Origin: Cyanobacteria bacterium P01_D01_bin.156
GTDB taxonomy: Bacteria; Cyanobacteriota; Cyanobacteriia; Phormidesmidales; Phormidesmidaceae
Assembly (NCBI GenBank): GCA_039024555.1
Contig: JBCCQQ010000022.1
Span: 1 to 64,000, forward strand
Length of the DNA: 64,000 bases
Reading direction: 5' to 3'
The translations under genes were made by a program, and so were the position numbers. Positions 4,601-20,286 of this stretch are shown in pieces. Position 1 is the first letter of the stretch. Each line of letters starts with the position of its first letter. The notes beneath the pieces are model-generated. The model was not told where the DNA came from. It was given only the letters and a program-made list of their open reading frames with translations, and searched no databases.

Positions 4601-5842
4601 ATGGTTTCGTTAGCCCGTAAAAACTTACTCAAAGACTTGCCTCGTTTTTTAGTAGCCCAGGCGGGCATTATGTTCGCCGTTAGCCTAGTTACCATTCAAA
4701 CTGGCATTCTAAAAGGGTTTACCCGATCAACAACACTGCTCATTGACAGTTCCGACGCCGATATTTGGGTCGCTTCAGAAAATATCGTCAACTTTGAGTT
4801 AACGGAGCCCTTTCCCTACGTTCAGGTACGACAGGCCCAGGAAGTCGAAGGCGTAGCCTTAGCAGAAGCGTTAACCATTGGCTCTGGTCGCTGGTATTCA
4901 GACGGTAAACTCACCACATTACGGGTATTTGGCTTTGACCCTAACGGCGAGTTGTTTCGACCAGGCCAGGTTTCTGAGCCATCGATTCAGGCGTTGAATG
5001 CTCCATACTCTGCCTTGATTGACCGTACTAACATGCGCTCCTTTCGCATTGATGGCGTGGGAGATACGGCACGCATTCGTCAGCTCCCGGTCATGGTGGT
5101 TGGTTTGACCCGCGACACCCAGTCACTGGTATCTAGTAAGTTTGTTTTTACGTCTCTAATTAATGCCAACGCTTACATTAGTTCTGGTTTTTCAGCCGGG
5201 TTAACCTGTCAGCTTGGTGATGGCGATATTACGTGTATTAATGCGTTTCAGCGCGAGCCAGATGCTGGCAATGCGGCAGTGGATGAGCCAGAACCGCTCA
5301 AAGCTGATGCACCCGTTACCTATGTATTGGTTAAAGCAGAACCTGGAGAAAATTTACAGCAATTGAAACAACGCTTAGAAAGCTCACTGTCTGGAACGAA
5401 AGCATTTACTAAAAACGAGCTGATTGCCAGCACTCAAGCCTATTGGCAAAATCGCACGGGCATTGGGTTTATCCTCGGGCTAGGTGCCATCGTTGGGGTG
5501 ATTGTGGGCATGGTGGTGGTCGCTCAGATTTTGTACACATCGGTTTCGGAAAATCTACGGGAATTTGGCACCCTTAAAGCCATGGGAGCATCGGACTGGG
5601 ATATCTACAGCGTGATTTTGGAACAGTCGCTGTGGATGGCTCTGTTGGGCTATGTACCAGGACTGCTGCTATGTTGGGGAATGGGCACTTGGACTGCTGC
5701 CACCCAGGGCATTGTGGTATTAATTACGCCCCTCAGTGCCGTAGGTGTTTTAGGCATCACCGTGGTGATGTGTGTCGGCTCGGCGGTGTTTGCTATTCAA
5801 AAGGTGACTCGCGTAGACCCCGGTATTGTGTTTAAGGCTTAG
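4601..5842 (+). CDS. ABC exporter permease, DevC/FtsX-like
   Basis: MVSLARKNL N-terminus, large periplasmic loop, EFGTLKAMGAS and C-terminal DPGIVFKA typical of DevC/MacB-type permeases. Confidence 0.85.
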   Translation: MVSLARKNLLKDLPRFLVAQAGIMFAVSLVTIQTGILKGFTRSTTLLIDSSDADIWVASENIVNFELTEPFPYVQVRQAQEVEGVALAEALTIGSGRWYSDGKLTTLRVFGFDPNGELFRPGQVSEPSIQALNAPYSALIDRTNMRSFRIDGVGDTARIRQLPVMVVGLTRDTQSLVSSKFVFTSLINANAYISSGFSAGLTCQLGDGDITCINAFQREPDAGNAAVDEPEPLKADAPVTYVLVKAEPGENLQQLKQRLESSLSGTKAFTKNELIASTQAYWQNRTGIGFILGLGAIVGVIVGMVVVAQILYTSVSENLREFGTLKAMGASDWDIYSVILEQSLWMALLGYVPGLLLCWGMGTWTAATQGIVVLITPLSAVGVLGITVVMCVGSAVFAIQKVTRVDPGIVFKA

Positions 5843-5882
5843 GGAATACAGGTGACATTCTTAGTGAGGTGTGGGGTTATTA

Positions 5883-6581
5883 ATGGTTGCGATCGCAGCG
5901 CGTAACATTCAAATGTCCTTTATGTCGGGCACCACTGAAACTCAGGTACTCAAAGGCATTGATCTAGCTATTCCTTCCGGACAAATTCGTCTAATGATGG
6001 GTCCGTCTGGCTCAGGGAAAACCACACTGCTATCGATTTTGGCAGGAATTTTAACCCCTACTGCAGGACGTGTAGAATTGCTAGGCCAAGAGATAACACG
6101 GCTCTCTCGCAAGGAACTAGCCACATTTCGCCGCGACCACATTGGGTTTATTTTTCAAAGCTTTAATCTGTTTCCGGCCCTTACTGCCCTTGAAAATATT
6201 GAGCTAGCTCTACAGCTTAAGGGCAAAAAAGGTCCAGGGAATAAGGAACACGCCTTTGACTTGCTAAAACAAGTTGGGTTAGGCAACCGAGTGGATAATT
6301 TGCCTGCCGATTTATCTGGTGGTCAGAAACAACGAGTTGCGATCGCTCGCGCTTTAGCCGGAGAGCCAGAACTGATTATGGCAGATGAACCTACAGCAGC
6401 TCTGGACTCTTCTACAGGTCGAGATGTAATTGAGCTGATGCAGTATTTAGCTAAAAATAAGGGCTGCACGGTGCTGATCATTACCCACGACCCTCGCATT
6501 ACCGACGCAGCTGATGAGATTACCTATTTAGAAGATGGTTTACTAGCTCAAGAATCTAGTTTGGTCACGGGCTTACATTAA
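5883..6581 (+). CDS. ABC exporter ATP-binding protein, DevA/LolD-like
   Basis: Walker [40 protein letters not shown]. Confidence 0.92.
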   Translation: MVAIAARNIQMSFMSGTTETQVLKGIDLAIPSGQIRLMMGPSGSGKTTLLSILAGILTPTAGRVELLGQEITRLSRKELATFRRDHIGFIFQSFNLFPALTALENIELALQLKGKKGPGNKEHAFDLLKQVGLGNRVDNLPADLSGGQKQRVAIARALAGEPELIMADEPTAALDSSTGRDVIELMQYLAKNKGCTVLIITHDPRITDAADEITYLEDGLLAQESSLVTGLH

Positions 6582-6936
6582 CTTGGTCAATAGAAACCTG
6601 GCATTGCGAAGGGTTCAAGTAATACCGTTGCGATCATTTTGAGAACATCATTGATGATTAACAGGGAGCGCGCCGCAGGGGCCAGCTGACACTCACTAAA
6701 GGCCACGGTTACACCCGAATGCTTGAGCATACGCCAACCCAACTGAGCAATGCTTGCTCGCCAGTGCGTAATTTTAACTAGGGTTAAGAGATAGGAGCCT
6801 GTAGCGTAGAGCACTTTTACTGTCAGTAATCCCCGATACCATCTCCCCATATGAAAAGAGATCGGGGTATCCGGTTTGTAGCTTTTTAGGAGAGCTACTT
6901 ACGCACGATACGCATATTCATCCATTCATCGTGTTT

Positions 6937-7632
6937 ATGCTTTCAGATACTACACTACTGGCCTATGTCCCCCAGTTTTCCGTCGTTTTCAACAACATTG
7001 GCTTCTTTGTTCAGGGACTATTACTTACCCTACAAATAACAGTTGCCTCAATATTTTTAGGTCTGATTTTAGGCATTTTAGGAGCGTTGGGTCGAACCGC
7101 TGACAATCGATTTTTTAACGCCATCGCCATCGCCTATGTTGAATTTTTCCGCAACACACCATTTTTAATTCAGCTGTTCTTCTTCTATTTTGGCTTACCC
7201 AGCATTGGTCTTAGAATGGCTCCCTGGCAGGCCGCCATCTTGGCCCTAGCCATTAATTTCGGGGCCTATTCAACGGAGATTATTCGGGCAGGTATTGAAG
7301 GTATTAGCCCCGGTCAAATCGAGGCAGGTATGGCCCTAGGGCTAAAGAAGATGAAAATTTTTCGCCACATCATTCTGATGCCAGCTCTTGGGAAAATTTA
7401 TCCATCATTGGTGGGTCAGGTGGTTATTGCCGTCTTGTTTAGCAGCGTTGTCTCTCAGATCTCAGTTGAGGATCTAGCCTTTGTTGGCAACTACCTACAG
7501 TCTAGAACGTTCCGCAGCTTCGAGATTTATTTTGCGGTGTCGGTAATCTATGTGGCCCTAGTCTGGTCAATTAAGGCGGCTGCTTTTTTAATTCAAAAGA
7601 GGTTTTTCTCTTTTACGCAGTACATCAAATAG
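6937..7632 (+). CDS. Polar amino-acid ABC transporter permease (HisM/GlnP family)
   Basis: FFRNTPFLIQL, EIIRAGI..GQIEAGMALG EAA loop. Confidence 0.92.
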   Translation: MLSDTTLLAYVPQFSVVFNNIGFFVQGLLLTLQITVASIFLGLILGILGALGRTADNRFFNAIAIAYVEFFRNTPFLIQLFFFYFGLPSIGLRMAPWQAAILALAINFGAYSTEIIRAGIEGISPGQIEAGMALGLKKMKIFRHIILMPALGKIYPSLVGQVVIAVLFSSVVSQISVEDLAFVGNYLQSRTFRSFEIYFAVSVIYVALVWSIKAAAFLIQKRFFSFTQYIK

Positions 7633-7674
7633 TATTTGTTCGGTTAGCAAACTGCTGTCTATGGGGACTGGAAA

Positions 7675-8328
7675 ATGCAGGATTTTACCCTTACTCAGAT
7701 TATTACTAATCTACTCAATGCCACAAAGTGGACGCTGGCCCTTTCCGCGATCGCATTTAGCTTCGGTGGCTTTTTTGGCTTCTTAATTATGTTAATGCGT
7801 ATTTCACCAAACCTAATTCTTAGAGCGGTCAGTACGCTATATATTGAGATTTTTGAAGCGACTCCGCTGATTATGCAGCTGTTTCTGGTATTTTTCGGGA
7901 TTTCAGTGCTGTTTGACATTACCCTCTCCCCCTGGGTTGCCGCAACCATTGCCCTGACCACCTACACCAGCGCATTTTTGGGCGACATCTGGCGTGGTGC
8001 TGTTGAAGCAGTCCCCACAGGTCAGTGGGAAGCGTCAACCGCCTTAGGTCTTCACTACTTCAAAAAGCTGCGACACATTATTTTGCCACAGGCCGTTCGG
8101 CTGTCCATTCCACCGACGGTGGGATTCGCCGTACAGGTAATTAAGGGAACTTCATTAGCATCCGTTATTGGGTTTGTCGAACTAACGCGTTCTGCATCTT
8201 CCATCAGCAACGTTACATTTCAGCCATTTTTAATTTTCTCAATCGCTGCAGTGATTTACTTTTGTCTTTGTTTCCCCCTCTCGCTATGGAGTAAACGCTT
8301 AGAAAAACGCTTTGCAGTCATCTCTTAG
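7675..8328 (+). CDS. Polar amino-acid ABC transporter permease
   Basis: TPLIMQL, GQWEASTALG, IKGTSLASVIG. Confidence 0.92.
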   Translation: MQDFTLTQIITNLLNATKWTLALSAIAFSFGGFFGFLIMLMRISPNLILRAVSTLYIEIFEATPLIMQLFLVFFGISVLFDITLSPWVAATIALTTYTSAFLGDIWRGAVEAVPTGQWEASTALGLHYFKKLRHIILPQAVRLSIPPTVGFAVQVIKGTSLASVIGFVELTRSASSISNVTFQPFLIFSIAAVIYFCLCFPLSLWSKRLEKRFAVIS

Positions 8329-8376
8329 GATGCTGGACATTCTTACTGTTGATTTTTTTACTTAGAAAAACACATC

Positions 8377-9267
8377 ATGCTCAAGAAACTGCTTCGTACT
8401 CAACATCCTGCTTTTAGAAAGCTGTTAGTTGCAGGCATTTGCTTTGTCTTTACCGTCAGTGTTGTTGCTTGCTCATCAGGATCAATTACGTCTCAGGAGG
8501 TTTCAGGTGATGTAGCCGATGCATCAGCAGTCAGTGCGACCGCCAGCGGCAGCACTCTAGATGCCGTACTGAGTGAAGGGGTGATTCAAATTGCAGTTCC
8601 CCAAGATAGTCCACCCTTCGGCTCGGTGGGTACCGATGGCCAGCCCCAGGGCTACGACGTCGACGTCGCTAAAATGATTGCAGAGTCGATGGAAGTTGAA
8701 CTCGAGCTTGTACCGGTAACCAGTACGAACCGAATTCCTTACTTAGAGACCGGACGCGCTGACTTGGTTATTTCGAGTATGGGCGCAACCCCAGAGCGCG
8801 CTAAGTCCATCTACTTTTCGTCAACGCCCTATGCTCCCTTTTTCTCAGGCATTTATGGTTCCAGTAGTCTCGATGTATCAGACTACAGCGACCTAGGCGA
8901 CTACACTGTGGGTGTCACCCAGGGTGCGCTTGAAGACTTAGAACTTACGGAAAAAGCCCCCGAAGGTACGGAAATTAGACGGTTTGAAGATAACAGCATC
9001 ACAATTTCAGCGTTACTCGCTGGTCAGGTTGATTTGGCCGCTACTGGAAATACGATTGCGGGAAAAGTCATCAAAGATAATCCCGATAAGGATATTGAAA
9101 ACAAGTTTGTGATGAAAAACTCTCCCTGCTATATCGGCATGCGTCGAGGCGACCAGGACATGTTGGAGTGGGTAAATGTTTTTATTCGTAACAAGCGTTT
9201 ATCCGGCGATTTAGACAAGCTGTCTTTGCAGTGGTTTGGAGAGCCCTTGAATATACCAACTTTCTAA
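8377..9267 (+). CDS. Polar amino-acid ABC transporter substrate-binding lipoprotein
   Basis: Lipobox [35 protein letters not shown] (SBP family 3). Confidence 0.9.
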
Positions 9268-9307
9268 GCTGTGGCTGTGTTTCTTTTTTGTTGTTAGGAC
9301 TATTTCC

Positions 9308-10090
9308 ATGGTAGGGAGTCAATCGGCTACGAATACGACAACTGAGCAGCTATCGAACGTTGTGATTAAAGCTCGCAATGTGGAAAAGTGGTATGACAAA
9401 AGTTTTCATGTCTTAAAGGGCGTCAGTCTTGATGTGATGCGCGGTGAGGTTGTCGTTGTCATGGGACCATCGGGTTCGGGAAAGTCCACATTTATCCGAA
9501 CGTTTAATGCTTTAGAGCCTTACCAAAAAGGAAGTATTGAAATTGATGGAACCCAGCTGACGGCTAAAATGCGAAATCTTGATGCGATTCGCCGCGAGGT
9601 GGGCATGGTCTTTCAGCAGTTCAATCTTTTCCCACATTTAAGCGTTTTAGAAAATGTGATGTTAGCTCCTGTCGAAACCCGAGGGTGGAAAAAGGAGAAG
9701 GCTAAAGACGTTGCGGCAGAGCTGCTGGAGCGAGTTGGTATCCTCGATCAGGCTAAAAAATACCCCGGACAGCTATCCGGTGGGCAGCAGCAGCGAGTTG
9801 CGATCGCACGCGCCTTGGCTATGCAACCCAAGGTTATGCTGTTTGACGAGCCCACCTCTGCCTTAGATCCAGAAATGGTACGGGAAGTATTAGATGTAAT
9901 GCGCTCCCTAGCTCAATCAGGCATGACCATGGTGTGCGTTACCCATGAAGTCGGCTTTGCCCGAGAGGTAGCTGACCGCATTGTGCTGATGGCAGATGGT
10001 CTTATCGTAGAAGAAAACAAACCGCAGGAGTTCTTTAGCAACCCCCAACACGAACGGACTAAACAGTTTCTATCGCAGATCTTGCACTAG
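9308..10090 (+). CDS. Polar amino-acid ABC transporter ATP-binding protein (GlnQ-like)
   Basis: [46 protein letters not shown]. Confidence 0.95.
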
Positions 10091-10102
10091 CGTTCTACAT
10101 AG

Positions 10103-10189
10103 CGTTGCTGATCCTCGGGATGATTTTATCTGCCAAATCCAGAACTCTGGACAGATGTACAGAGCATTTCATCCTCTAAATCAGCAACG
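10103..10189. repeat. Long nested imperfect inverted repeat between convergent genes (possible bidirectional terminator or structured RNA)
   Basis: CGTTGCTGAT(10103)/ATCAGCAACG(10180), GGATGA/TCATCC, ATCTG/CAGAT and TCCAG/CTGGA form nested pairs. Confidence 0.6.
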
Positions 10190-10199
10190 GCTTCGGCAC

Positions 10200-11171
10200 C
10201 TAGGTTGACGTTAGTTCTTTAGCAATACCGGTCAAAATCTCAGGCACCGGGCGGGGCTGCCAACCTAGGTCGCGCATGGCTTTTTCGCCACTGATGCGAA
10301 CACAGCGGTCATAGATATAGTGGACCAGTTCATTATTTAGGGGCGCATTCCAAGATAGTGCCTTGCCGATGGGGTCTAGAGCGCCACCAATCAGTCTGAC
10401 CAATGGCTTGGGAGCATCTGCCGGAGCTTTCACACCGACGGCATCTCCTAGAACTTGGAACATTTCGCCAATGGAAAGCTCCCCAGCGGAGATGATGAAA
10501 TGTTCTCCAGACGAGGCTTTTTCAACAGCGAGCACCATGGCTTGCACCAGATCATCCACATGAACAATACCGGTGATGCGATCGCACCCAGGCCATAGGG
10601 GTAAACGGCCCTTCAAAAACAACTTAATCACCGGACCAAAGTGTGGATCATCCGCCCCAAAAATTCCACCTGGCATTAAGCTAACCGCCCAATAACCATC
10701 AACCACATGCTGATTCACCAGCTGCTGAGCCTTAAACTTAGTCTCATCATAGGCAGATGAAAAACCTTCCTGGGTGCGCTGATAGGTTTCATCAATCACC
10801 TGCCCTGCTGTATCGCCATAAATACCAATGGTGCTGCAATAAACTAACTTCGGCGGATTGGCCTGCGATTGAATGGCATCGATCACTGTGCGAGTGCCCT
10901 GAACATTCACCCGTTTCATCCGGGCTGCATCCACAATCCCCAGATCGACACAGGCAGCAATATGAAACACCACATCCACGCCTGCCATGGAGGAAGTTAA
11001 AACGTCCGCCTCGGTAATGTCACCATAGACCAACTGCACATCCAAATTATCTAATCGGGTCAAATCACTCGTGCGCCGCACCAATCCAACGACGCGATGC
11101 CCCTGTGATATCAATAGTTTGACCAAATGAGAACCTGTGAAGCCATTAGCCCCTGTAACCAGTGCTTTCAT
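10200..11171 (-). CDS. NAD(P)-dependent epimerase/dehydratase/reductase (extended SDR, HpnA/DFR-like); candidate 3-keto-lipid reductase
   Basis: TGANGFTGS nucleotide-binding motif, VFHIAA, YDETK catalytic YxxxK, VHVDDL; specific role inferred from context. Confidence 0.85.
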   Translation of the reverse strand: MKALVTGANGFTGSHLVKLLISQGHRVVGLVRRTSDLTRLDNLDVQLVYGDITEADVLTSSMAGVDVVFHIAACVDLGIVDAARMKRVNVQGTRTVIDAIQSQANPPKLVYCSTIGIYGDTAGQVIDETYQRTQEGFSSAYDETKFKAQQLVNQHVVDGYWAVSLMPGGIFGADDPHFGPVIKLFLKGRLPLWPGCDRITGIVHVDDLVQAMVLAVEKASSGEHFIISAGELSIGEMFQVLGDAVGVKAPADAPKPLVRLIGGALDPIGKALSWNAPLNNELVHYIYDRCVRISGEKAMRDLGWQPRPVPEILTGIAKELTST

Positions 11172-11470
11172 ACCGATGCTTGATGTGCTGTAAGTGCTAT
11201 GCTCGCCAGTGCCAATGGGCCTAAGCTGTTATCGTAACGGAAATCATGTCGTTTTCTTACAATGCTATTGCCGACAGCTGCATCTAGAAAGCCGCTAAGA
11301 TAATAAAGCAAAAAAAGTTAGCGATTATTTCAAAAATCATCACTCAGTTTATGGATGCATATCTCGTAGACTTTGGTCACCTAAAACCCACGAAATACGC
11401 ATTATAAAAGCTGCCTATTTAAAGTTCACACTTACCTAAAGCCTGGATGTTTTTTAGAGCGTCCCATTAA

Positions 11471-12574
11471 ATGCAAAAAATAATTCAAAAGTCTGATTTT
11501 GTTCTGACTCCCTATATGCAGAGCAATGATCTTCGTGCTACATATCAAGTTTTAAATACGCTAATTCCCTACATTTTATTATGGGTTTTAGCTGTAAAAG
11601 TAGCCCATATTTCTCTTGGGCTTCTAGCACCAATTATCATCTTATTAGTGCTTTTTTCATTGCGATGCTTTTCGCTGATGCATGATTGCGGTCATTATTC
11701 ACTGTTTAGATCTAAAAAAGTAAATCGAATCGTTGGATTCCTCTTGGGTCTAATTAATGCCATGCCCCAGTATTGGTGGTCTAGAGACCATGCCTATCAT
11801 CACAAAACAAATGGTGACTGGGAACGCTATCGCGGCATTGGTGATTTTTTATCCACAGAAGAATATGCCAAGCTAAGCCCAGCCGATCAAACTCTATATG
11901 GGGTATTGAGGCATCCATTAATGGCATTTCCAGGAGGCTTTTTCTATTTAGCATTTAAGCCCAGACTCATTTTTATTCTGGGTATTTGTGACTTTATTCG
12001 CTATGGATGGAGTTGCCTAAAACTAGATTCTAAGGTTAGCTTTTCAGACATTCTGACGTCCCATCAACCCAAGCATTGGTCTACTGCAGCAGAATTCTGG
12101 GATATTTTTCTGAACAATATTTTTGTCGTGGGTGGATGGATTCTTTTAAGTCATTGGTTAGGTGTGGGATTTTTCCTAGGCATATATTCTGTCGTGCTCA
12201 CGCTGTCGGCAGCTATTTTTATTAATGTATTTTTTGTACAGCACAATTTTGATGGAGCCTATGCCCATAAAACGGAAGGTTGGGATTACTTAACAGGGGC
12301 AATTGAAGGCAGTAGCTACCTAGAGTTGCCCTGGATTTTAAAGTGGTTTACGGCTGATATTAGTTACCACAATATTCATCATCTCTCGGAAAGAATTCCT
12401 AACTACAATTTGAAGGCATGCCATCAAAAAAACATCCATCTACTCACTCATATAAGAACTATTCACATGGGTGAAGTATTAGACTGCGCTAAATTTATTT
12501 TGTGGGATGCTGACGAGAATAAGCTGGTCTCTATACAACTGTTTCGCCACAATCAGACCAATGCCTTTTCGTAA
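11471..12574 (+). CDS. Membrane-bound fatty acid/acyl-lipid desaturase
   Basis: Three His boxes HDCGH, HAYHH, HNIHH plus FFVQH; hydrophobic segments. Confidence 0.92.
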   Translation: MQKIIQKSDFVLTPYMQSNDLRATYQVLNTLIPYILLWVLAVKVAHISLGLLAPIIILLVLFSLRCFSLMHDCGHYSLFRSKKVNRIVGFLLGLINAMPQYWWSRDHAYHHKTNGDWERYRGIGDFLSTEEYAKLSPADQTLYGVLRHPLMAFPGGFFYLAFKPRLIFILGICDFIRYGWSCLKLDSKVSFSDILTSHQPKHWSTAAEFWDIFLNNIFVVGGWILLSHWLGVGFFLGIYSVVLTLSAAIFINVFFVQHNFDGAYAHKTEGWDYLTGAIEGSSYLELPWILKWFTADISYHNIHHLSERIPNYNLKACHQKNIHLLTHIRTIHMGEVLDCAKFILWDADENKLVSIQLFRHNQTNAFS

Positions 12575-13695
12575 ATGCGGTAAGTCTTATAAATCTTGGC
12601 CCCAGTACTCTCAATAATGTTGCGCGATCGCATATTGTCCTCATATACCCAGGACAGTTCAGAACGCCTATAGGGAGGTTTCTTATCCGTCCCTCCCTTC
12701 ATACCCAAATACACTACGGCTAAAGCTACCATTTTGCGACTATATTCTGGCAGCGTACAAATCGCCAAAACCCTCGCCTGGTTGATTTTACGACGATGCC
12801 AAAGAAACTTCAGAATACCCAAAACATTCAATTTACCCTTGACATGCTTAAGGGCAATATTGTAATCCGGTAAGGCCATAAAAAAGCCCACCATTTTGTT
12901 ATTAGAGTCTTTTTTAGGATCTTCTGCAATTACAAAAATATCTGTATCCACTAGAGTCTGCAGATCTCTAGCTTCCTCCATAAACTCCGCTTCCGTACGG
13001 GCGCTAGAGCTCCAATTGTGAGCAAACGCCGTAGTAAACAGTTCGTAGATATGACGACAATCTTGCTCGAAGGCTTCACCCTTCAAATTGATAGTGCGAA
13101 ACGTAATACCTGCCTTCTGGGCAATCTTATAGCCTCGCTCAAAGCTATCAGGTAAAGGATGATCCAAAGGCAAATCATAGGCATAGGCATCTTTAGCTTT
13201 ATGCCAACCGTTTGCCTCCATCAAATCTAGATAGTAACTAGGGTTGTAAGGCATCATTACCATTGGGTCAGAGTCAAACCCATCCGCCAAAAAACAACAG
13301 TTGTTGTGGGTAGACAAGTCAATTGGGCCACGAGCCACAGTCATTCCCTGTTGTTTTAGCCAACCCGTTGCTTCGTCTAGAAGTGCTTTCCCCACATGTT
13401 GATCGTCAATGCATTCAAAAAAACCCATCAAACCAACAGGCTGATTCTCCCGCTCAATCAGCCGCTCATTCACAGCTGCAACAATTCTTCCCACCGGTCG
13501 CTTTCCTTCGTAGGCCACAAACTGTTGCAGCTTGCCGTACTGAAAAAATGAATTCTCTTCAGAAAACTGTTTAGCTGTACTGGACTCAATAGGAGCAACC
13601 CAATGAGCATCCTGTCGGTATACATAAGCTGGAACAGCCAGAAATTCGGCTTGTTCTTCTGGCGTAGTGACCGACCTAATAGAAAAATTATTCAT
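12553..13695 (-). CDS. Double-GNAT acyltransferase, bacterial ceramide synthase (bCerS/YghO)-like
   Basis: VY..D.HWVAP, VGRIVA, GFFECIDD, ARGP, GFD..PMVMMPYNPSYY, KAKD, ALPDYN, SELSWVYEDN, KIYKTYRIYEK match the family pattern as I know it; ATG 13695 chosen as start. Confidence 0.8.
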   Translation of the reverse strand: MNNFSIRSVTTPEEQAEFLAVPAYVYRQDAHWVAPIESSTAKQFSEENSFFQYGKLQQFVAYEGKRPVGRIVAAVNERLIERENQPVGLMGFFECIDDQHVGKALLDEATGWLKQQGMTVARGPIDLSTHNNCCFLADGFDSDPMVMMPYNPSYYLDLMEANGWHKAKDAYAYDLPLDHPLPDSFERGYKIAQKAGITFRTINLKGEAFEQDCRHIYELFTTAFAHNWSSSARTEAEFMEEARDLQTLVDTDIFVIAEDPKKDSNNKMVGFFMALPDYNIALKHVKGKLNVLGILKFLWHRRKINQARVLAICTLPEYSRKMVALAVVYLGMKGGTDKKPPYRRSELSWVYEDNMRSRNIIESTGAKIYKTYRIYEKALV

Positions 13696-13812
13696 AGCTG
13701 GGAGAGTAGAGCACAAAGAGTAAGGAATAGGTCGCAAAACCAAGATGTAATCTCTAGAAACAAGTTCCAAGGATTAACCTGTATACCTATTCCCCACTCC
13801 CATCGTTCTCAG

Positions 13813-15096
13813 TTAAGCGTACTGAACCACTGCGCCGCCAAGCTTTTCACGGACAGCGACCATAGCTTCCACAAGCCGATCCATTTCAGCCTGAGTGTGG
13901 AGAGCATTCGCCGTAATCCGAAGTCGGGGCTTAGCGATAAACCAAATTGCCGATACCCAAATTCCATACTCTTCCATCAGGGCACGAGCATAGGACTTAG
14001 GATCGAGGTCAGGAGGCAGCAAAACAGGAATTACATTGGTCTCACCAATGGCATCAAAGCCAGCGGCAATCAGCTTAGTACGCAGATACCTAGTATTAGC
14101 CTGTAGCTTAGCCACCCGTTCAGGTTCGCTACGGACTAGCCGAATACTCTCTAGGGCCGCTGCAGTTACCGGGGGAGGCAGAGAAATCGTACCGATAGAT
14201 GTGGGTGACACATCCAACAGATCAATCAGCTCACGGTTAGGAGAACTAATAGCAGCCCCAGCAGACCCAGCAAACTTAGAGAATGTGGTCATAATGACGG
14301 GCACGATACCACGGTCAATAACTGACTGGGGGGTAATGCCAAAGTGATCGTAAATTCCTTCACCCCTACCACCAATGGCACCACTGGCATGGGCTTCGTC
14401 CATGACAACAACACTGCCAGGATAGTGTTCCATAATGTCTAACATGCGAGGCAATGGCACCACATCACCATCCATGGAGAAGACCGCATCAGAAATGACA
14501 ATTACCCGATCATCAGGACGCACATAGCGACGCATTTTGCGCTCTAAGTCATCCATATCGCAGTGGCGATAGGCCTTAACGCGCACCTTAGGACTATGGC
14601 CAAACATTTTACCGGAGCGATTATCCGCATTCACCACTGCCGCGATAATACAGCCGTGATTGAGTACATCGCTAAAGATAATAGTTTCACGAGTGTGCTG
14701 GAACCCAGCAACAGGAACAGCTAGGTGGCAAAAACCATCCATCAATGCCTGCAGGGCCATCCAAGCATTCAGAAACAGCTGCGTATGGGGCAAATGCTTA
14801 AAAGCAGAAATCTCTTCCTCAAGTTGCCGGTGTAGCTCAATACGACCGCTTAACACCGAGCAAGAACTGTTAGATGTGCCATAGCGACGGATAGAGTCAA
14901 TAGCGGCCTGAGTTACCTCCTTGTCTTGGGCCATACCCAACACATCGTTGGTACAAAAGGTCAGAACCTGGTGTCGTTTGCCAGTGCCCTGTTCTTCGAT
15001 ATCTATCTGATTGCCATTTTTATAGTGGCAAATGAATTTGTCAGGGTATAACCCGCTTGCATGCAAACGTTGCACGTAGTCATTAACGACTTCCAC
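13813..15096 (-). CDS. PLP-dependent alpha-oxoamine synthase (SPT/BioF/Kbl family), serine palmitoyltransferase-like
   Basis: SDVLNH, YRHCDMDDL, VFSMDGD, DEAH, TFSK (PLP lysine), RLRIT; GAGGAG RBS before GTG. Confidence 0.85.
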   Translation of the reverse strand: MEVVNDYVQRLHASGLYPDKFICHYKNGNQIDIEEQGTGKRHQVLTFCTNDVLGMAQDKEVTQAAIDSIRRYGTSNSSCSVLSGRIELHRQLEEEISAFKHLPHTQLFLNAWMALQALMDGFCHLAVPVAGFQHTRETIIFSDVLNHGCIIAAVVNADNRSGKMFGHSPKVRVKAYRHCDMDDLERKMRRYVRPDDRVIVISDAVFSMDGDVVPLPRMLDIMEHYPGSVVVMDEAHASGAIGGRGEGIYDHFGITPQSVIDRGIVPVIMTTFSKFAGSAGAAISSPNRELIDLLDVSPTSIGTISLPPPVTAAALESIRLVRSEPERVAKLQANTRYLRTKLIAAGFDAIGETNVIPVLLPPDLDPKSYARALMEEYGIWVSAIWFIAKPRLRITANALHTQAEMDRLVEAMVAVREKLGGAVVQYA

Positions 15097-15218
15097 AATT
15101 TACTCCTCATCACCTACATTGAGCATATCAATCAACCAAGGTCGAAAATACAAAGGCTGATACACCTTCAGCAATACGCCTTGGCATCAACGGGGCTTGG
15201 GTATCCCAAGCGGGCGAA

Positions 15219-16343
15219 TCACACAAGCATACCGTTACTAACCTCCTGGGATGGTTGGCTAGGAGACTCTTTTGAAGCCTCTAGACGAGACTTAGACGGT
15301 TTCTCCAAACTCTCATACTGACCAGCAATTACCCGCTGTAGAGCGATAATTGCTGGATTAACTTCGACGTAGTTGCGCTGCGGGTCGATGGAATAGTTAC
15401 GCTGCTCGCTTTCCATCATTTCTACGTCCTGATGCAAAAACTTGAGAAAAATACTGTTCAGAATCACCTTTTCTAGCACTCTTGCTAGGGGGCCACTGAG
15501 CAGCCATTGTGGCAGAGGCAATTTCAAAAACATTAGGGAAAAAGACTTAGTCTCAGTAGGGCCGACTGGCAAACGCATGAGGTAAAGAGAGGAAACCGAC
15601 TCTAATGCAGTTGCGTAATGGGGATAGCAATAGCGAATGGAAACCGTACGGGTCGTACTATCACTCCCTTTAGAACCCAAGCCTAAAAGCTTGCTCAAAA
15701 ATCCCTCATAGGAGACTTGATAATCCGCTGAAACTTCCTGATCGTCTTGCCTCAGATTTAGGAGCTTAGGATCGTACCAACCTTGCAGCTCCTTATGCAA
15801 AAACCCATGGAACACATCCATCGTATTCTCGTTACAGATGGAAAAATGGGCTTGAAAATGTCCTGGAATACGCACCATAAACCAACCAGGCTGTCCATAC
15901 TGAGGAACTTCCGGCAAAGGTTGTTGCGTAGCTAAATCAGCATCTCCAGGAAAAACCCATACAATGCCGTAGGCTTCACGAGTCGGATAACTATGCGCCT
16001 GAGCACAAGGAAGCTTCTGTTCCTTAGGGAAATAAGGAATGCCAACGCAGGTGCCATCAACATCAAACTCCCACCCATGATAAGGACACACAAGATTATT
16101 GCCATGAATCTCGCCCCGATGGAGCTCTACGCCTTTGTGAGGGCAGGCATCGGCCATGCTGTGCACGGTGCCATCCATGGCCCGATAAACAGCAAGGGGA
16201 GTTTCCCAAACCTGTGCAGAAACTACTTCACCCACCTCAATCTGGTCAGCCCAAAACACGGGATACCAGTAGTTTGGGTTAATACCGACCGCACGTGCAC
16301 GTCGATATATGGGTTGGCCTTTGAGAACAGCAGACGCTTCCAT
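15219..16343 (-). CDS. Rieske non-heme iron oxygenase
   Basis: Rieske CPHKG...CPYHGW; mononuclear Fe site ENTMDVFHGFLH and distal QD. Confidence 0.92.
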   Translation of the reverse strand: MEASAVLKGQPIYRRARAVGINPNYWYPVFWADQIEVGEVVSAQVWETPLAVYRAMDGTVHSMADACPHKGVELHRGEIHGNNLVCPYHGWEFDVDGTCVGIPYFPKEQKLPCAQAHSYPTREAYGIVWVFPGDADLATQQPLPEVPQYGQPGWFMVRIPGHFQAHFSICNENTMDVFHGFLHKELQGWYDPKLLNLRQDDQEVSADYQVSYEGFLSKLLGLGSKGSDSTTRTVSIRYCYPHYATALESVSSLYLMRLPVGPTETKSFSLMFLKLPLPQWLLSGPLARVLEKVILNSIFLKFLHQDVEMMESEQRNYSIDPQRNYVEVNPAIIALQRVIAGQYESLEKPSKSRLEASKESPSQPSQEVSNGMLV

Positions 16344-16765
16344 CGTTTACGACTAAAACTAAGACTTAGAGAACATCAGCAAAACAGCATTTTCAATTTA
16401 CGAGACATAGCTTGATTTTTACTGAGTAAAGCCCAATAAGCTCAAATTTTGTCTGCCAATCGGATGTCAGCTTGGGTGCAGTATGACGGTAAGCCATAGG
16501 CTGATGCTGAAGTTTAGTGACGCTTCACGAACTGGCAATTCAGGGATTCCAAAAAGCTGGAGCAATTAGATAAAACAAAGGGAAATCCCATAAGAGCTAG
16601 TAAGTAGACAGATAAAGCAGCAATACTTACTAACGAGGCGTAGACCCTGGTTTTTCTCTAACCCTGATAACCAGTTATGGGTAATGTTAACATCTATTAA
16701 CTTGTCGCGAACGAACAGCCTGCAGAGCTGTCTTTCTTTAGCAAGTGTTACCTGCCCCCATCTCT

Positions 16766-17974
16766 ATGACCACTGTCTACAAGAAACCTGCCACTCTTAC
16801 CGTAGAGAACCGCGGTCAAAGCCCTGCCCCCCAACCGATAAAACATTCTTGGCGAGTGTTAGCCGTCCTGATGATGTCAGGCTGTTTGTCGAGTGCGGCC
16901 GGTGCGATAGTGGCACCCGTTTTTCCAGAAATTATTGAGTACTTTGGACTCAGTGGACGTTGGGCAGGCGTACTAGTAAGTACCCATACCCTTACAACAG
17001 CTTTGGCCAGCCTGGTATTTGGTCTCTTGGCTAAACGTTTAGGCAACGTGCGCATTTTACTGTCTTGCTTGGTTGGGTATGCCGTTTTCGGCGGTTTGGG
17101 TGCTCTGGCCGATGGCTTCTGGCACATTTTATTTTCTAGGGCTTTAGTCGGTGTGGCGAGCGGCGGCATCGGTGCCGGTAGCATTGGCATTTTAAGCAAC
17201 CTGTACGAAGGTGAAGCCCGCACCCGCATGATGGGCTACGCCACCAGTGCATTAGCCACGGCCACGGTCATCTTTCCGATTTTAGGGGGTTGGTTAGGTC
17301 TTTATCACTGGCGTTCGGCATTTTTGCTATACGGATTAGGGGTGCCTGCTGCCTTAGTTGGATTATGGCTTCTCCCTAAGGGGCAACGAGGTAGACGAGA
17401 TATTCCCAAAGCCGATGGCATTGGTTCAATTCTGCAGCAAAGCCGAGTGCTGTTGTTACTACTGGCTTTAGCAACGGCATCAGCTATTTTTTATGTAGTG
17501 GTGGTATACGCGCCGCTTTACCTTAAGCAAGCAATCGATGCATCTTCTCTGCTCAATGGCTTTGTATTGGCGGCACGTTCTGTAGGTGCTGCGGTCATTG
17601 CGGCGGTAGGTGCTGCCAAAGTCTCCAAACGCTTGGGGGCTGGTGGAGCGATCGCAACCGGCTTCTTACTTATGGCCATATCCTTAGCAACCATTCCCAG
17701 TGTGCTTGCCCCGTCACTTATGCTCATAACAGGTTTACTCTTTGGCCTGGGATTTGGGCTAGTGATGCCAAACTTTTACAGTGCCTTAGCGGATTTATCA
17801 CCCGATTCCCAACGATCTGGAGTGCTGGCCATTGGTACTGGCTGTGCCTCCATGGGACAGTTCCTTTCTCCATTTGTGTTTGGTCCCATTTGGGCCAGTG
17901 CAGGTACCCAGGTGTTCTACATCGCAGCGGCTATTGCTGCTACGGTAGGTTTACTGAACTGGGTGCGTCGTTAG
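16766..17974 (+). CDS. MFS transporter
   Basis: About 12 hydrophobic segments; GLLAKRLG motif-A-like loop, RALVGVASG, PILGGWLG..HWR. Confidence 0.9.
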   Translation: MTTVYKKPATLTVENRGQSPAPQPIKHSWRVLAVLMMSGCLSSAAGAIVAPVFPEIIEYFGLSGRWAGVLVSTHTLTTALASLVFGLLAKRLGNVRILLSCLVGYAVFGGLGALADGFWHILFSRALVGVASGGIGAGSIGILSNLYEGEARTRMMGYATSALATATVIFPILGGWLGLYHWRSAFLLYGLGVPAALVGLWLLPKGQRGRRDIPKADGIGSILQQSRVLLLLLALATASAIFYVVVVYAPLYLKQAIDASSLLNGFVLAARSVGAAVIAAVGAAKVSKRLGAGGAIATGFLLMAISLATIPSVLAPSLMLITGLLFGLGFGLVMPNFYSALADLSPDSQRSGVLAIGTGCASMGQFLSPFVFGPIWASAGTQVFYIAAAIAATVGLLNWVRR

Positions 17975-17988
17975 GCTATAGCTAAGCC

Positions 17989-18456
17989 ATGATTCTGAAA
18001 CATTCCCTAGTCAAGTTTCTCAAAACTGGAGCTATTCCCCTTCTACTCATCACCGTTGCTGTAAGGCAGATTGTTTTAGTCAATACTGCAGGATTAAGTC
18101 CCTGGCATGGTGGCGGGTTTGGCATGTTTGCATCTATGGACCGTGACGAACGACGGGTGGTCACGGCTCAACTGGAATGTGAATCCATCCAAGGGGTATC
18201 GTTACCAGGACTATTAGCCAATGCTCCCGAGCTCGTTCAGGATAAAACGTATATCCACATCAGTACGTTTCCCACAGACGCTCAACTACAGCGTTTGGGT
18301 AAGCTGCTGACCGAAGATACTGGAAATATTACTGGCCTGACTGACGGGCTAAATGAATGTGGCGAGACATTACAGCTGCAGGCTTGGCGGTTGATTTATA
18401 AAGATGGAGCCATTGGCTATAAACCCATTACTCAACCCGTTGAGGTAATACCATGA
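17989..18456 (+). CDS. Small membrane-anchored protein, probable partner of the HTTM protein (SdpA/DUF5819-like role)
   Basis: N-terminal hydrophobic helix then LSPWHGGGFGMFASMD; ATGA overlap with next gene. Confidence 0.6.
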   Translation: MILKHSLVKFLKTGAIPLLLITVAVRQIVLVNTAGLSPWHGGGFGMFASMDRDERRVVTAQLECESIQGVSLPGLLANAPELVQDKTYIHISTFPTDAQLQRLGKLLTEDTGNITGLTDGLNECGETLQLQAWRLIYKDGAIGYKPITQPVEVIP

Positions 18457-19343
18457 GCTGGTTCAAGCAATGGAATTTGTGGTTGAGTAACCTGATGCAG
18501 CCACCGGTTTATTTGCTGGTGCTTAGGCTGACCACAATTTTATTAGTGCTCCATAGCATTGATCACTGGCTGTGGACCATGCTGCCAGAAAAGCTCCTAG
18601 CCATAGCCATGCTGCTATACGCACCGTTGCTACGTCAACGCTGGGCTTGGTTGGCAATGAGCGTATTTCTGATAGTGAATAACCTGTGGCACTGGGCCAC
18701 ATTGGTGAACCACGAGTATCTCTACACCTACTGGGTGTTGGTATGTACTGTGGCAGTGTGGAGCCGAACGCCAAAGCAGGTACTGAGCTGGAATGCTCGC
18801 TGGATCATTGGCCTCTGTTTTTTATTTGCCACCCTGTGGAAATTTATTGGTGGTGAATATTTAGACGGTTCGTTTTTGCACCTAACATTTTTGCTAGATC
18901 ATCGCCTGGCAATGGGGGCTTTTCTATTCGGTGGACTGGACCTAACAACCCTGGCCGAAAATAGGCAAATCTTTGAAACTTTGCAGGCTTCAGGGGCTGT
19001 TTTAGAACCGCAGCAATTAGCCACTACACCACGGATGGCGGTAGCCAGCTTAGTGCTGTCTTACTGGACTATTTTGATCGAAGGATTGGTAGCCGCTAGC
19101 TTTTTATTGCCCATTCGCTGGCTTTATCAAAAACGTGACTGGATACTTTTTATCTTTGTACTGACTACCTACACAGTGATTCCAGTGTTGGGGTTTGGGG
19201 CATTGCTGATGGTGATGGGCTTGATCCAAACAAAAAGCAACTTCGTAGCTCGGCTTTACCTTGGTCTGTTAATATCCATGCCTATTTGGATGCCATTACC
19301 TCAGGGCATTTTTGGGGTAATGCAAATGCTCTTTCAAGCATAA
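18453..19343 (+). CDS. HTTM-domain / vitamin K-dependent carboxylase-like membrane protein
   Basis: NHEYLY and FATLWKFIGGEYLDG resemble the NHSYLY and AGVKKLDADWVEG motifs of GGCX/HTTM proteins; multi-TM. Confidence 0.65.
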   Translation: MSWFKQWNLWLSNLMQPPVYLLVLRLTTILLVLHSIDHWLWTMLPEKLLAIAMLLYAPLLRQRWAWLAMSVFLIVNNLWHWATLVNHEYLYTYWVLVCTVAVWSRTPKQVLSWNARWIIGLCFLFATLWKFIGGEYLDGSFLHLTFLLDHRLAMGAFLFGGLDLTTLAENRQIFETLQASGAVLEPQQLATTPRMAVASLVLSYWTILIEGLVAASFLLPIRWLYQKRDWILFIFVLTTYTVIPVLGFGALLMVMGLIQTKSNFVARLYLGLLISMPIWMPLPQGIFGVMQMLFQA

Positions 19344-19428
19344 GTTCATTCTCAAGATATTTGTTTCGTGTCAGTTGAACCGCTCAATTACTGGCCCATA
19401 AAGCAAGACTACAAACATCGTGAGATTT

Positions 19429-20286
19429 CTAGCTCACCTGAGTATCCGGTGATTCTTGCAATAGCCATAGGCCGCTGTAGGTCATACCAGAATCATCGGG
19501 ACGAATGAGCAAAAAATGTAGTCCCTTAGCCGTTGCTTTTCGCTGCTCAAAAGCATTGGCCGCTCCACGCACATCAGCATCTTCAAACGTCGTAAGCACA
19601 AAACGATCACTCAGTCCTGCTTCTAAAATCAAGCCATCAGGCTGTCCGGCAATATATTGCAAAAATGCTGGGCGCACCGACTCTAACCACTGAGCCAACG
19701 CCATAGCTCGCTGCCCACCATCGATCACTACACCAGGAATCAAAACCGTACTGGATAAACCAATCTCTAGAGGCAAGAATTCCTTGGGCACCGACCGGAT
19801 CGGAATCGCTTCGTATTGAAACCGCAGCAATTCTGCGTTAGAAAGTCCTGCAAATCGCCACGTTTCACCCCATAAATTATCTGGCAAAGGAATAGGGGTA
19901 GAACGTTCAATAGAGAATGGCGAATAAGGCTCACCCGTGTACGTTTTTAGATTGGAATACCAAGCGGTGCGCTGCCGTAACCACTGCTTCAGGGTGGGCA
20001 ATGCCCGTTTCGGCACCACCGAAATATCCAGTTCCCGACAGGCAACTTCCGTCAGCGTTTGGGATTGGGGACGAAATACCTCTAATCGATTAGGACGATA
20101 CCCAGCTCGATGAATTGCTTGCTTTAGCTGATGGCGTAGCCACATGGCATCTGCCTGGGGCTGAGGACAGGTTTCTGCATAGCTAAAGTCCATATTTGGG
20201 GTGCATAGCAGCAACTCCCAATGGGTATTGTTCTCAGCGTTTTTTAAGGGACGGCGATAGAAGTCAAGCTGCCAGGGGAGACTCAT
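19429..20286 (-). CDS. Tab2/Atab2 family RNA-binding protein
   Basis: WQLDFYRRP, WELLLC, FRPQ, LWGETWRF, ILEAGLSDR, GLHFL; ATGA overlap with glgP stop. Confidence 0.9.
   Translation of the reverse strand: MSLPWQLDFYRRPLKNAENNTHWELLLCTPNMDFSYAETCPQPQADAMWLRHQLKQAIHRAGYRPNRLEVFRPQSQTLTEVACRELDISVVPKRALPTLKQWLRQRTAWYSNLKTYTGEPYSPFSIERSTPIPLPDNLWGETWRFAGLSNAELLRFQYEAIPIRSVPKEFLPLEIGLSSTVLIPGVVIDGGQRAMALAQWLESVRPAFLQYIAGQPDGLILEAGLSDRFVLTTFEDADVRGAANAFEQRKATAKGLHFLLIRPDDSGMTYSGLWLLQESPDTQVS

Follow-up and report, generated by a model that had tools for sequence, protein, structure and literature searches.

The window analysed here is a stretch of 64,000 nucleotides from Cyanobacteria bacterium P01_D01_bin.156 (contig JBCCQQ010000022.1, positions 1 to 64,000). 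Positions 10200..16343 hold five open reading frames, as the original prediction had it: a Rieske oxygenase, an alpha-oxoamine synthase (AOS), a GNAT acyltransferase, a desaturase and an SDR. Four of the families are borne out by Pfam, namely PF00355 (Rieske), PF00155 (AOS), PF00487 (desaturase) and PF01370 (SDR). The proposed run of Rieske, AOS, GNAT and SDR genes is real, with all four on the minus strand. The desaturase, said to lie in the middle of the run, does sit between the GNAT and SDR genes, but on the opposite strand. The features of the locus are:

4601..6581, plus strand: DevC/DevA-type ABC exporter genes (FtsX/MacB and ABC_tran), a possible loose associate
10200..11171, minus strand: extended SDR, an HpnA/Gox2253-like NAD(P)H reductase (PF01370), core gene, predicted ketoreductase
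11471..12574, plus strand: His-box membrane desaturase, Bacillus DesA delta5-like (PF00487), a lineage-specific insertion outside the module
12553..13695, minus strand: tandem-GNAT acyltransferase of the YghO/bCerS family, core gene, assigned by homology, tree, and AF2 with Foldseek
13813..15096, minus strand: PLP-dependent alpha-oxoamine synthase (PF00155), core gene, from a distinct subfamily found mostly in cyanobacteria
15219..16343, minus strand: Rieske non-heme iron oxygenase (PF00355), accessory module member, predicted tailoring hydroxylase/oxidase
16766..17974, plus strand: divergent MFS transporter (PF07690), module member, predicted exporter/flippase

The start of the GNAT was set at the ATG at 13695 by alignment of homologs. 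An Rfam scan of positions 9000-20500 gave no match, and promoter and terminator scans of the locus gave results no better than those from shuffles. At loci L039 and L047, two genes of no known family, without a Pfam match, lie between the Rieske and AOS genes.

Orthologs of AOS, GNAT and SDR occur in an identical set of 24 among 301 sampled genomes. They are also present together where they lie far apart (genomes G017, G190, G220, G158, G248 and G294), and their identity is 53-75% even once scattered over the chromosome. We compared these 24 AOS-positive genomes with 26 AOS-negative genomes, a non-random sample with 15 members from one family, so that the co-occurrence statistics overstate independence. 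By this comparison, the MFS ortholog is found in 22/24 against 0/26 genomes, a small fatty-acid hydroxylase in 23/24 against 1/26 and a GH3 amide ligase in 20/24 against 0/26, and every genome with a Rieske ortholog is AOS-positive (18 of the 24, the ortholog not being found in the other 6). The genes of the locus form the core of a set of seven which many cyanobacteria retain or lose as one.

Conserved synteny across cyanobacteria, as envisaged originally, is seen in the recurring neighbours of AOS: 24 AOS-centred loci hold GNAT in 18 cases, Rieske in 18, MFS in 15, SDR in 11 and the desaturase in one, and clustering around AOS is far beyond chance. MFS is adjacent in 56 of 80 named loci, and GNAT and SDR are at most 60 bp apart, mostly overlapping, in 30 of the 50 loci holding both. 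The order AOS-GNAT-SDR is that of the actinobacterial spt-bCerS-reductase operons, found in Streptomyces and Rubrobacter plasmid operons. Module matches in the GTDB species collection number 426 stretches from a sizeable, scattered set of cyanobacterial lineages; among the named carriers are Leptolyngbya sp. PCC 7375, Leptothoe, Spirulina subsalsa, Rivularia, Mastigocoleus, Thermosynechococcus, Hormoscilla and Chroococcidiopsis. The distribution is patchy, with one carrier among 35 genomes within one large family. A metagenome scan with the divergent relative P0002 gave four loci, three of which are the same module.

The desaturase is an unrelated, lineage-specific insertion and a bystander. 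It converges on the GNAT gene with a 22-bp overlap, splitting a GNAT-SDR pair that normally overlaps, its GC content is 38.9% against 47.1% for the genome, and it scores 229 against 500 on NF052548. Its ortholog is found in 3/24 AOS-positive and 7/26 AOS-negative genomes, and its presence at this site extends to 16 of 20 close relatives but to none of 60 distant ones. Around the orthologs in three other genomes, no module gene lies within the surrounding 12-17 kb. Strand, GC content, lack of co-occurrence and a position restricted to close relatives led us to reject the desaturase as a part of the pathway.

By its sequence, the AOS is a distinct subfamily with intact catalytic but rewired specificity residues. 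It retains N50, H147, D233, H236, K274 and R393 and carries a conserved basic insertion (residues 155-180). It falls below every NCBIfam AOS cut-off, and its identity to any reference AOS is 25-34%, such that neither chain length nor amino acid can be given by sequence. In our tree it forms its own clade (100/100) outside the 8-member clade of Spt and Spt-operon enzymes (100/96), a placement repeated in a 76-row quick tree. Fold search and ESM Atlas look-ups gave nothing beyond family membership, and the specificity segments are mostly unreliable in the AF2 monomer (pLDDT <50 at 75-83, 103-135, 146-168 and 271-306). As identities for the AOS, BioF, Kbl, HemA, CqsA and SulA were rejected or found unsupported on NCBIfam scores, tree and residues; a CqsA/LqsA-type model gives 92 bits.

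On one reading of the locus, the AOS would be a redundant BioF or Kbl, or else the Rieske and SDR proteins would make up an SdmA/SdmB-like sterol or hopanoid demethylase, and the clustering would be incidental. The best NCBIfam matches do carry these names (bioF for AOS, SdmA for Rieske, HpnA/SdmB for SDR), but every score is far below its cut-off: the AOS reaches 230 bits on TIGR00858 (BioF; cut-off 426), the Rieske protein 211 of 600 on SdmA and the SDR 122 of 600 on SdmB. Furthermore, the genome encodes a separate true BioF (C40:44998-46086) that passes with 475 bits, from which the window AOS differs in clade and to which it is ~31% identical, in agreement with the initial view that set the AOS apart from BioF. 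On SdmA, an equal score is reached by a Rieske paralog that is no member of the module, and the SDR goes with AOS in all 24 genomes, in 6 of which a Rieske ortholog was not found. We consider this reading very improbable.

The description of the AOS as SPT-like does not hold in any specific sense, given its placement outside the Spt clade and its altered specificity residues. We took the specificity positions from PMC11906848 and PMC9304779. Across 201 sequences of the AOS family, position 79 is Cys, Thr or Ala, S80 and G302 are invariant (201/201 each), I304 is present in 197, and W-[FY]-x-A-K-P-R is conserved. The Spt signature, comprising a Ser gatekeeper with Arg, Ala at PLP-Lys+30 and a PATP loop, is thus absent: with near-invariance, Ser-Arg of the gatekeeper loop becomes Cys/Thr/Ala-Ser, Ala at K+30 becomes Ile, a conserved Phe/Tyr becomes Gly and the PATP loop is shortened.

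These residues bear on the reading of the module as a source of ordinary serine-derived (dihydro)ceramide, made by means of a highly diverged Spt, bCerS and a replacement reductase, which could explain cyanobacterial ceramide reports. Among PDB sequences the AOS indeed matches Sphingobacterium Spt best, TFSK is kept around the PLP lysine, and an AU test does not reject AOS and Spt as a single clade (p 0.30). However, the lead of Spt over ThAOS/Kbl is slight (146 against 140 bits), the top BLAST score belongs to a BioF, and the G-S-R and F-[ST]-A found in 7/7 Spt or Spt-operon references are replaced in the AOS family by S-[CTA]-S and G-T-I. The co-inherited GH3 ligase would also be superfluous for a serine ceramide. 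NCBIfam Spt models give the AOS 114-177 bits, against cut-offs so strict that NF047603 is passed by none of 14 controls, Caulobacter among them. On balance we think a serine ceramide unlikely.

A closer conceptual precedent, indeed the closest, is SulA (CapA) of Alistipes finegoldii, described in the accessible part of PMC9304779 as an acyl-ACP-using AOS that performs the first step of sulfonolipid/capnine synthesis; like the module AOS, it departs from Spt in specificity and opens the route to a sphingolipid analog. In contrast to SulA, whose diagnostic residue is Lys281 (PLP-lysine +30), the module AOS has Ile in 197/201 sequences, and use of cysteate is therefore not supported; the equivalence of Ile304 to Lys281 was set by the offset from K274 and by alignment to Spt references.

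Lipidomics of Nostoc punctiforme had been brought to bear on the locus, yet the accessible part of PMC8895605 concerns the cyanobacterial BioF (Npun_R3567 group), the sole AOS found there in that genome. This enzyme shares superfamily and phylum with the window AOS and differs from it in clade. Since the present genome has a separate true BioF, the negative result in Nostoc is no test of the AOS-GNAT-SDR module.

The GNAT alone has no Pfam match at 0.001, whereas 17/17 aligned members match PF00583 at E<=0.1, and by Foldseek its AF2 model resembles tandem GNATs. Over its full length it is homologous to YghO of E. coli BL21 (30% identity over 385 columns, E 1e-52), an N-acyltransferase candidate according to the accessible part of PMC9386255, and the two share the C-terminal motif E-[LM]-[SG]-W-x-x-E-[DT]-N...Y-R-x-Y. 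In a tree that left out the Caulobacter bCerS sequence itself, the GNAT falls with Spt-linked homologs on the bCerS side of a 100/100 branch, YghO-like proteins without an AOS neighbour being excluded. Homology and tree placement thus uphold the bCerS-like assignment. YghO-family GNATs without any AOS occur beside AMP-binding or MMPL genes in non-photosynthetic relatives, and so the fold by itself does not mean ceramide synthase.

The SDR carries the motifs TGANGFTG and YxxxK, has 3WJ7 as its best PDB match (1.9e-38) and is 26-31% identical to five Spt-operon reductases. In the tree it branches with an HpnA-like paralog (94/96), apart from CerR/Epi (AU p 0.07 for grouping with CerR), and with the NCBIfam scores this favours the suspicion that it is HpnA-like rather than clearly CerR. 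E. coli Epi likewise has HpnA as its best match. The apparent position of the SDR outside the CerR/Epi group counts against a ceramide-like product.

Rieske motifs are present at residues 67 (CxH...CxxH) and 173 (NxxDxxHxxxxH). The best PDB matches of this protein are Sxt oxygenases (E 4e-24). We rejected a saxitoxin-like cluster, as the match covers the N-terminal half only and the AOS is stand-alone, not a multidomain fusion.

The MFS transporter, the fatty-acid hydroxylase and the GH3 ligase were absent from the original prediction, yet are co-inherited with its genes. The GH3 protein has JAR1-like motifs and all three Pfam GH3 domains, above cut-offs, and adjoins the MFS-Rieske-AOS block in several genera. 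In the present genome it shares a locus on another contig (C14:62846-65877) with the hydroxylase and an OlsC-like gene. The latter scores 252 bits on the OlsC model; its close orthologs (60% or more) are found in only 4/24 genomes, and for that reason we rejected it as a core gene and treat it as accessory. In several genera unrelated to one another (L028, L040, L093, L103, L111, L121, L131), DevC/DevA genes come after the SDR.

AOS enzymes are active in several natural-product and autoinducer routes. The module might make a secreted acyl-amide natural product or signal: an aminoketone of short or medium chain length would undergo acylation, reduction and oxygenation, be joined to an amino acid by GH3 and leave the cell through the MFS protein. 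The dedicated MFS, the JAR1-like GH3, the Rieske oxygenase and the patchy distribution are consistent with this; the exporter and GH3 fit a secreted small molecule as well as they fit a ceramide-like lipid. Nonetheless, the neighbours recurring across genera (fatty-acid hydroxylase, OlsC-like acyl 2-hydroxylase, JmjC cupin, desaturase, cyclopropane synthase and an Mpo1-like protein) are lipid-tailoring enzymes, and the membrane His-box hydroxylases, OlsC-like enzyme, desaturases and cyclopropane synthase among them act on long acyl chains. The identity retained after scattering is more what one expects of a housekeeping envelope function than of a mobile cluster, and the CqsA/LqsA-type score is low. 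A secreted product is, in our estimation, a minority prospect.

The separate GH3 locus raises another arrangement: two linked lipid routes, one of AOS, GNAT and SDR, the other of GH3, small hydroxylase and OlsC-like enzyme, yielding a hydroxylated N-acyl amino acid lipid much as OlsH does for ornithine lipid. OlsH is a GH3-type lyso-ornithine lipid synthetase of Singulisphaera that uses ATP to join ornithine to a free fatty acid, giving an N-acyl amino lipid (PMC12493201, accessible part), and the module GH3 is proposed to be, like it, a bacterial amide ligase of amino-lipid synthesis. The OlsC score and the 4/24 AOS-positive genomes in which GH3 was not found are compatible with two routes. 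Against this, GH3 was found in none of the 26 genomes without AOS, lies next to the AOS block in several genera and, with 80 bits, stays far short of the 620 set for the OlsH model NF052613; unlike OlsH, it is co-inherited with an AOS pathway instead of OlsI. Two independent routes thus seem quite improbable to us.

As first remarked, no ACP gene lies at the locus; genome-wide, there is a single match to the ACP model TIGR00517. E. coli AcpR as tblastn query gave no match in the genome, and a dedicated AcpR/AasR of the Rhodobacteria type, a feature not general among Spt producers, was likewise not found. AasR-like AMP-binding matches lie on other contigs. Because of the single ACP match and the basic insertion of the AOS, we infer housekeeping acyl-ACP as the acyl donor.

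The reading we favour, somewhat more readily than its competitors combined, is that the co-inherited seven-gene pathway builds a ceramide-like N-acyl amino-alcohol lipid, with an amino acid other than serine as the probable substrate. All of the individual reactions are inferred. The AOS would condense acyl-ACP with the amino acid; the resulting aminoketone would be N-acylated by the bCerS-family GNAT, and its keto group reduced by the SDR. Chain hydroxylation may fall to the small fatty-acid hydroxylase and the Rieske enzyme and, in some lineages, to an OlsC-like or JmjC hydroxylase. GH3 might attach another amino acid to a carboxyl group through an amide bond, or supply an N-acyl amino acid building block, and MFS, perhaps with DevCA, would export the product to the envelope.

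This scheme resembles the bacterial ceramide pathway of Caulobacter crescentus and E. coli BL21(DE3), given in the accessible parts of PMC11087976 and PMC9386255 as Spt-bCerS(CerS/Aca/YghO)-CerR(Epi), in combining an AOS, a YghO-family tandem GNAT and an extended SDR. It differs in an AOS outside the Spt clade with other specificity residues, in an HpnA-like SDR (26% identical to E. coli Epi over 208 aa), in the lack of an AcpR gene at the locus, and in the addition of GH3, MFS, Rieske and the small hydroxylase. We saw no LptF/G or head-group genes near the locus. A literature search, to which most subscription journals were out of reach, found no published description of the module.

Glyceroglycolipids and phosphatidylglycerol are the accepted constituents of cyanobacterial membranes. 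The sole genetic study of cyanobacterial sphingolipids that we found addressed, in its accessible part, the wrong enzyme, BioF (PMC8895605). With the module, the idea of a phosphorus-free aminolipid gains a concrete genetic footing that can be tested. We put forward only tentatively that the carrier lineages make a new membrane aminolipid class, with a C-C-linked sphingolipid-type backbone that a new oxoamine synthase subfamily builds from a non-serine amino acid, acylation by a bCerS relative and an amino-acid cap added by GH3. If true, sphingolipid and amino-lipid chemistry would meet in a hybrid, its backbone being the third after those of ceramides and sulfonolipids. The oxoamine synthase family would gain a new substrate specificity, a large group of bacterial GH3 ligases would gain a function, and the lipid might also give a lineage biomarker in mats and sediments.

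All five open reading frames proposed for the locus exist, with Pfam matches to Rieske, Aminotran_1_2, FA_desaturase and Epimerase. The Rieske oxygenase, the PLP alpha-oxoamine synthase (AOS), the tandem-GNAT acyltransferase (GNAT) and the extended reductase (SDR) are all encoded on the minus strand; the desaturase is encoded on the opposite, plus strand, with a 22-bp overlap at the 3' end of the GNAT gene. Contig C22 of a 6.6 Mb genome begins with the window, and the closest named relatives among the matches listed are Leptothoe/Leptolyngbyaceae (AOS identity 93-96%). Two further groups of genes were noted in the window:

6931-10090, four genes for a polar amino-acid ABC transporter, located between SDR and the exporter genes devCA; the relatives examined have various other genes here
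17989-19343, a gene pair following the MFS gene (one product of 155 aa, the other a membrane protein of 296 aa) with no Pfam or NCBIfam match, kept 3' of MFS only in Leptothoe and Almyronema relatives

AOS orthologs (66-75% identity) are found in 23 other genomes, making 24 of 301 sampled Cyanobacteriota genomes with the source genome included. The expected synteny across cyanobacteria is conserved, GNAT and Rieske each lying near 18 of the 24 AOS genes, a divergent MFS near 15, SDR near 11 and the desaturase near one. Scanning the GTDB species collection with a pattern gave 426 stretches that code for a relative, and nearly all of the 80 listed are titled cyanobacteria. Among 80 named loci, many of them incomplete, we counted Rieske in 70, MFS in 56, GNAT in 54, SDR in 40, a small fatty-acid hydroxylase in 29, the desaturase in 16 and GH3 in nine.

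The same 301 genomes were then searched gene by gene. The GNAT profile matched 41, of which the 24 scoring at least 590 bits are exactly the AOS genomes and the other 17 score at most 221 bits; SDR matches fall in an identical set of 24. Rieske matched 26 genomes, with 18 orthologs that score at least 425 bits, every one in an AOS genome, and only a 35% paralog in the remaining eight. In six genomes GNAT is distant from AOS or on a different contig, and all three core genes are still kept. We also compared the 24 AOS-positive genomes with 26 from the same class that lack AOS, the latter picked non-randomly from listed rows and including 15 from one family. Orthologs of MFS were present in 22/24 versus 0/26 (weak paralogs only in four negatives), the small PF04116 hydroxylase in 23/24 versus 1/26 (that match at 53%) and the GH3 ligase in 20/24 versus 0/26, while close orthologs of an OlsC-like hydroxylase occur in four of the 24. 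Fisher p-values of ∼1e-10 to 1e-12 overstate this co-occurrence, because kin are not independent. Contrasts within families agree with the counts: G264, from the window's family, is without all seven module genes, and G242 is the sole carrier of all seven among 16 panel members of its family. Our conclusion is that the module is a real, conserved pathway; that its clustering is incidental is very improbable.

A second module locus was found in the source genome:

C14:62846-65877 (fetched locus L177:8847-11881), OlsC/AspH-like hydroxylase (+), small PF04116 hydroxylase (-), GH3 ligase (+)

The module is contiguous in Chroococcus, Chlorogloea, Aliterella and two MAGs, where its order is amidohydrolase, Mpo1-like, hydroxylase, GH3, MFS, Rieske, AOS, GNAT, SDR, DevA, followed by DevC in 4/5. 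A division of these genes into two linked routes, which the separate locus might evoke, is improbable. A bacterial GH3 makes N-acyl ornithine (PMC12493201). That the module, with its GH3 and MFS genes alongside AOS, GNAT and SDR, makes a secreted acyl-amide is unlikely. In Rivularia-type loci (L088, L097, L110, L116, L122, L129) the stretch between MFS and Rieske also holds a desaturase of a second family, a gene for a cyclopropane fatty-acid synthase and one for a B12 radical-SAM protein (DUF4070), which suggests that chains are methylated or cyclopropanated. In one family, two conserved genes (about 175-220 and 295 aa) that lack a Pfam match lie between Rieske and AOS:

L039:9525-11024, L047:9464-11049, also L181 and L182, two-gene insert
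G000:C4:187628-188975, the source genome's own copy

IS605/TnpB elements lie within or beside the cluster in L026, L040, L041, L088 and L108, and their insertion is likely one cause of its fragmentation.

The desaturase, originally predicted to belong to the pathway, is an insertion and no member of the module. It occurs in 3/24 AOS-positive versus 7/26 AOS-negative genomes, its GC content is 38.9% versus 47.1% for the genome, and it separates GNAT from SDR in 16/20 close relatives versus 0/60 distant ones. Four close loci do not show it: three of them are truncated before this point, and in the remaining one (L067) the GNAT and SDR genes overlap. Among the 50 loci with both GNAT and SDR, 30 have the two at most 60 bp apart. 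The desaturase could conceivably act on the product within this clade.

AOS scores below every NCBIfam AOS cut-off (bioF 230/426 bits, Kbl 210/460, HemA 188/339, Spt 114-177), and a separate gene of the source genome passes that for bioF (475). Trees (76 rows, quick; 32 rows, careful, LG+G4) give its subfamily a separate clade with strong support, apart from Spt, Kbl and BioF. Grouping with BioF, part of the outcome that would have undone the original prediction, is not seen. The label 'SPT-like' also finds no support as a specific assignment, as AOS falls outside Spt and its specificity segments differ, although an AU test is compatible with sisterhood to Spt (p 0.30). A profile search of 1.84 billion representatives gave about 12 clusters scoring 250-680 bits, with the general family following at no more than 220; divergent relatives of the subfamily include P0002, P0004, P0005, P0006, P0009 and P0010, one of them named as coming from a Pseudomonadota MAG.

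Because N50, H147, D233, H236, K274 and R393 are conserved, AOS should be active. Nearly all of the 201 sequences compared, some of which are redundant, show rewired specificity segments. The gatekeeper, Val79 in ThAOS and Ser102 in Spt (PMC11906848), is Cys in 163, Thr in 29 and Ala in nine, followed by Ser where Spt has Arg. The subfamily has N-A-W where references have [ST]-G-[YF]. At PLP-Lys+30, where Spt has Ala and SulA has Lys281 (PMC9304779), the subfamily has Ile, adjoining a Gly where an aromatic residue is otherwise conserved. Its PATP loop is shorter by four residues and has invariant Lys389 and Arg391. Most of these segments are modelled poorly in the monomer. By analogy with the SulA basic patch, the basic insertion at residues 155-180 is a candidate ACP-binding site. 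We infer from these residues a substrate pair unlike serine and palmitoyl; a true serine ceramide, with which sisterhood to Spt would accord, is unlikely.

GNAT alone has no Pfam match at 0.001; 17/17 aligned orthologs match Acetyltransf_1 at E≤0.1, and its AF2 model (pLDDT 81) resembles tandem GNATs such as 2WPW, MshD and MAB_4324. The proposed homology to bCerS is supported: an end-to-end alignment matches GNAT to E. coli BL21 YghO (30%, E 1e-52), listed as ortholog of Caulobacter CC_1154, an N-acyltransferase required for dihydroceramide (PMC9386255). Homologs sit inside spt clusters on plasmids of Sphingomonas, Roseomonas, Aureispira, Streptomyces and Rubrobacter; in Streptomyces and Rubrobacter the AOS-GNAT-SDR order is the same as in the module. 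A Streptomyces plasmid (L052:6766-11292) has spt-like, bCerS-like and reductase genes, then a condensation-domain gene. YghO-like genes without AOS in the fetched stretches come from non-photosynthetic Cyanobacteriota and one oxygenic genome (G164), adjoin AMP-binding, MMPL, PPDK-like or DUF3419 genes, and in some cases are fused to long unannotated N-terminal regions:

L158:6493-9459, L162:6302-8593, L163:4423-7311, AOS-less YghO-like GNATs
L165:5846-7474, L169:6885-8009, L170:5984-6997, the same

In an unrooted tree (27 rows), a 100/100 branch has these AOS-less proteins on one side and the cyanobacterial clade together with the Spt-linked proteins on the other; the proteins on this second side have a C-terminal motif in common. 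The AOS-less proteins are a different acyl-transfer system, and the YghO/GNAT family is wider than ceramide synthesis.

SDR carries glycine-rich and YxxxK motifs, has 3WJ7 as best PDB match and is 26-31% identical to Spt-operon reductases. As had been suspected, it looks more HpnA-like than clearly CerR-like: a 23-row tree joins it to an HpnA-like paralog (94/96) and not to CerR/Epi, with an AU p of 0.07 for a grouping with CerR. CerR itself is a periplasmic, NDUFA9-like protein according to PMC11087976. A separately recruited ketoreductase is the best reading, tied to GNAT since the two are strictly co-inherited and translationally coupled. The Rieske cluster and iron ligands are intact; the protein's likeness to SdmA is no greater than that of an unrelated paralog, and the Rieske is dispensable.

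PMC8895605 reports no sphingolipids in N. punctiforme, where the enzyme studied is the cyanobacterial BioF, the sole AOS found there, and cites two ceramide reports from other cyanobacteria; in the available part of PMC11334938, cyanobacteria appear only within a reference. A DesA-family hydroxylase is noted for Caulobacter ceramide (PMC11324152). No description of this module was found in the literature searched, and the pathway is apparently undescribed. It likely works like bacterial ceramide synthesis, but its first enzyme, AOS, sets it apart from that system, and we somewhat favour a non-canonical ceramide-like lipid as its product.
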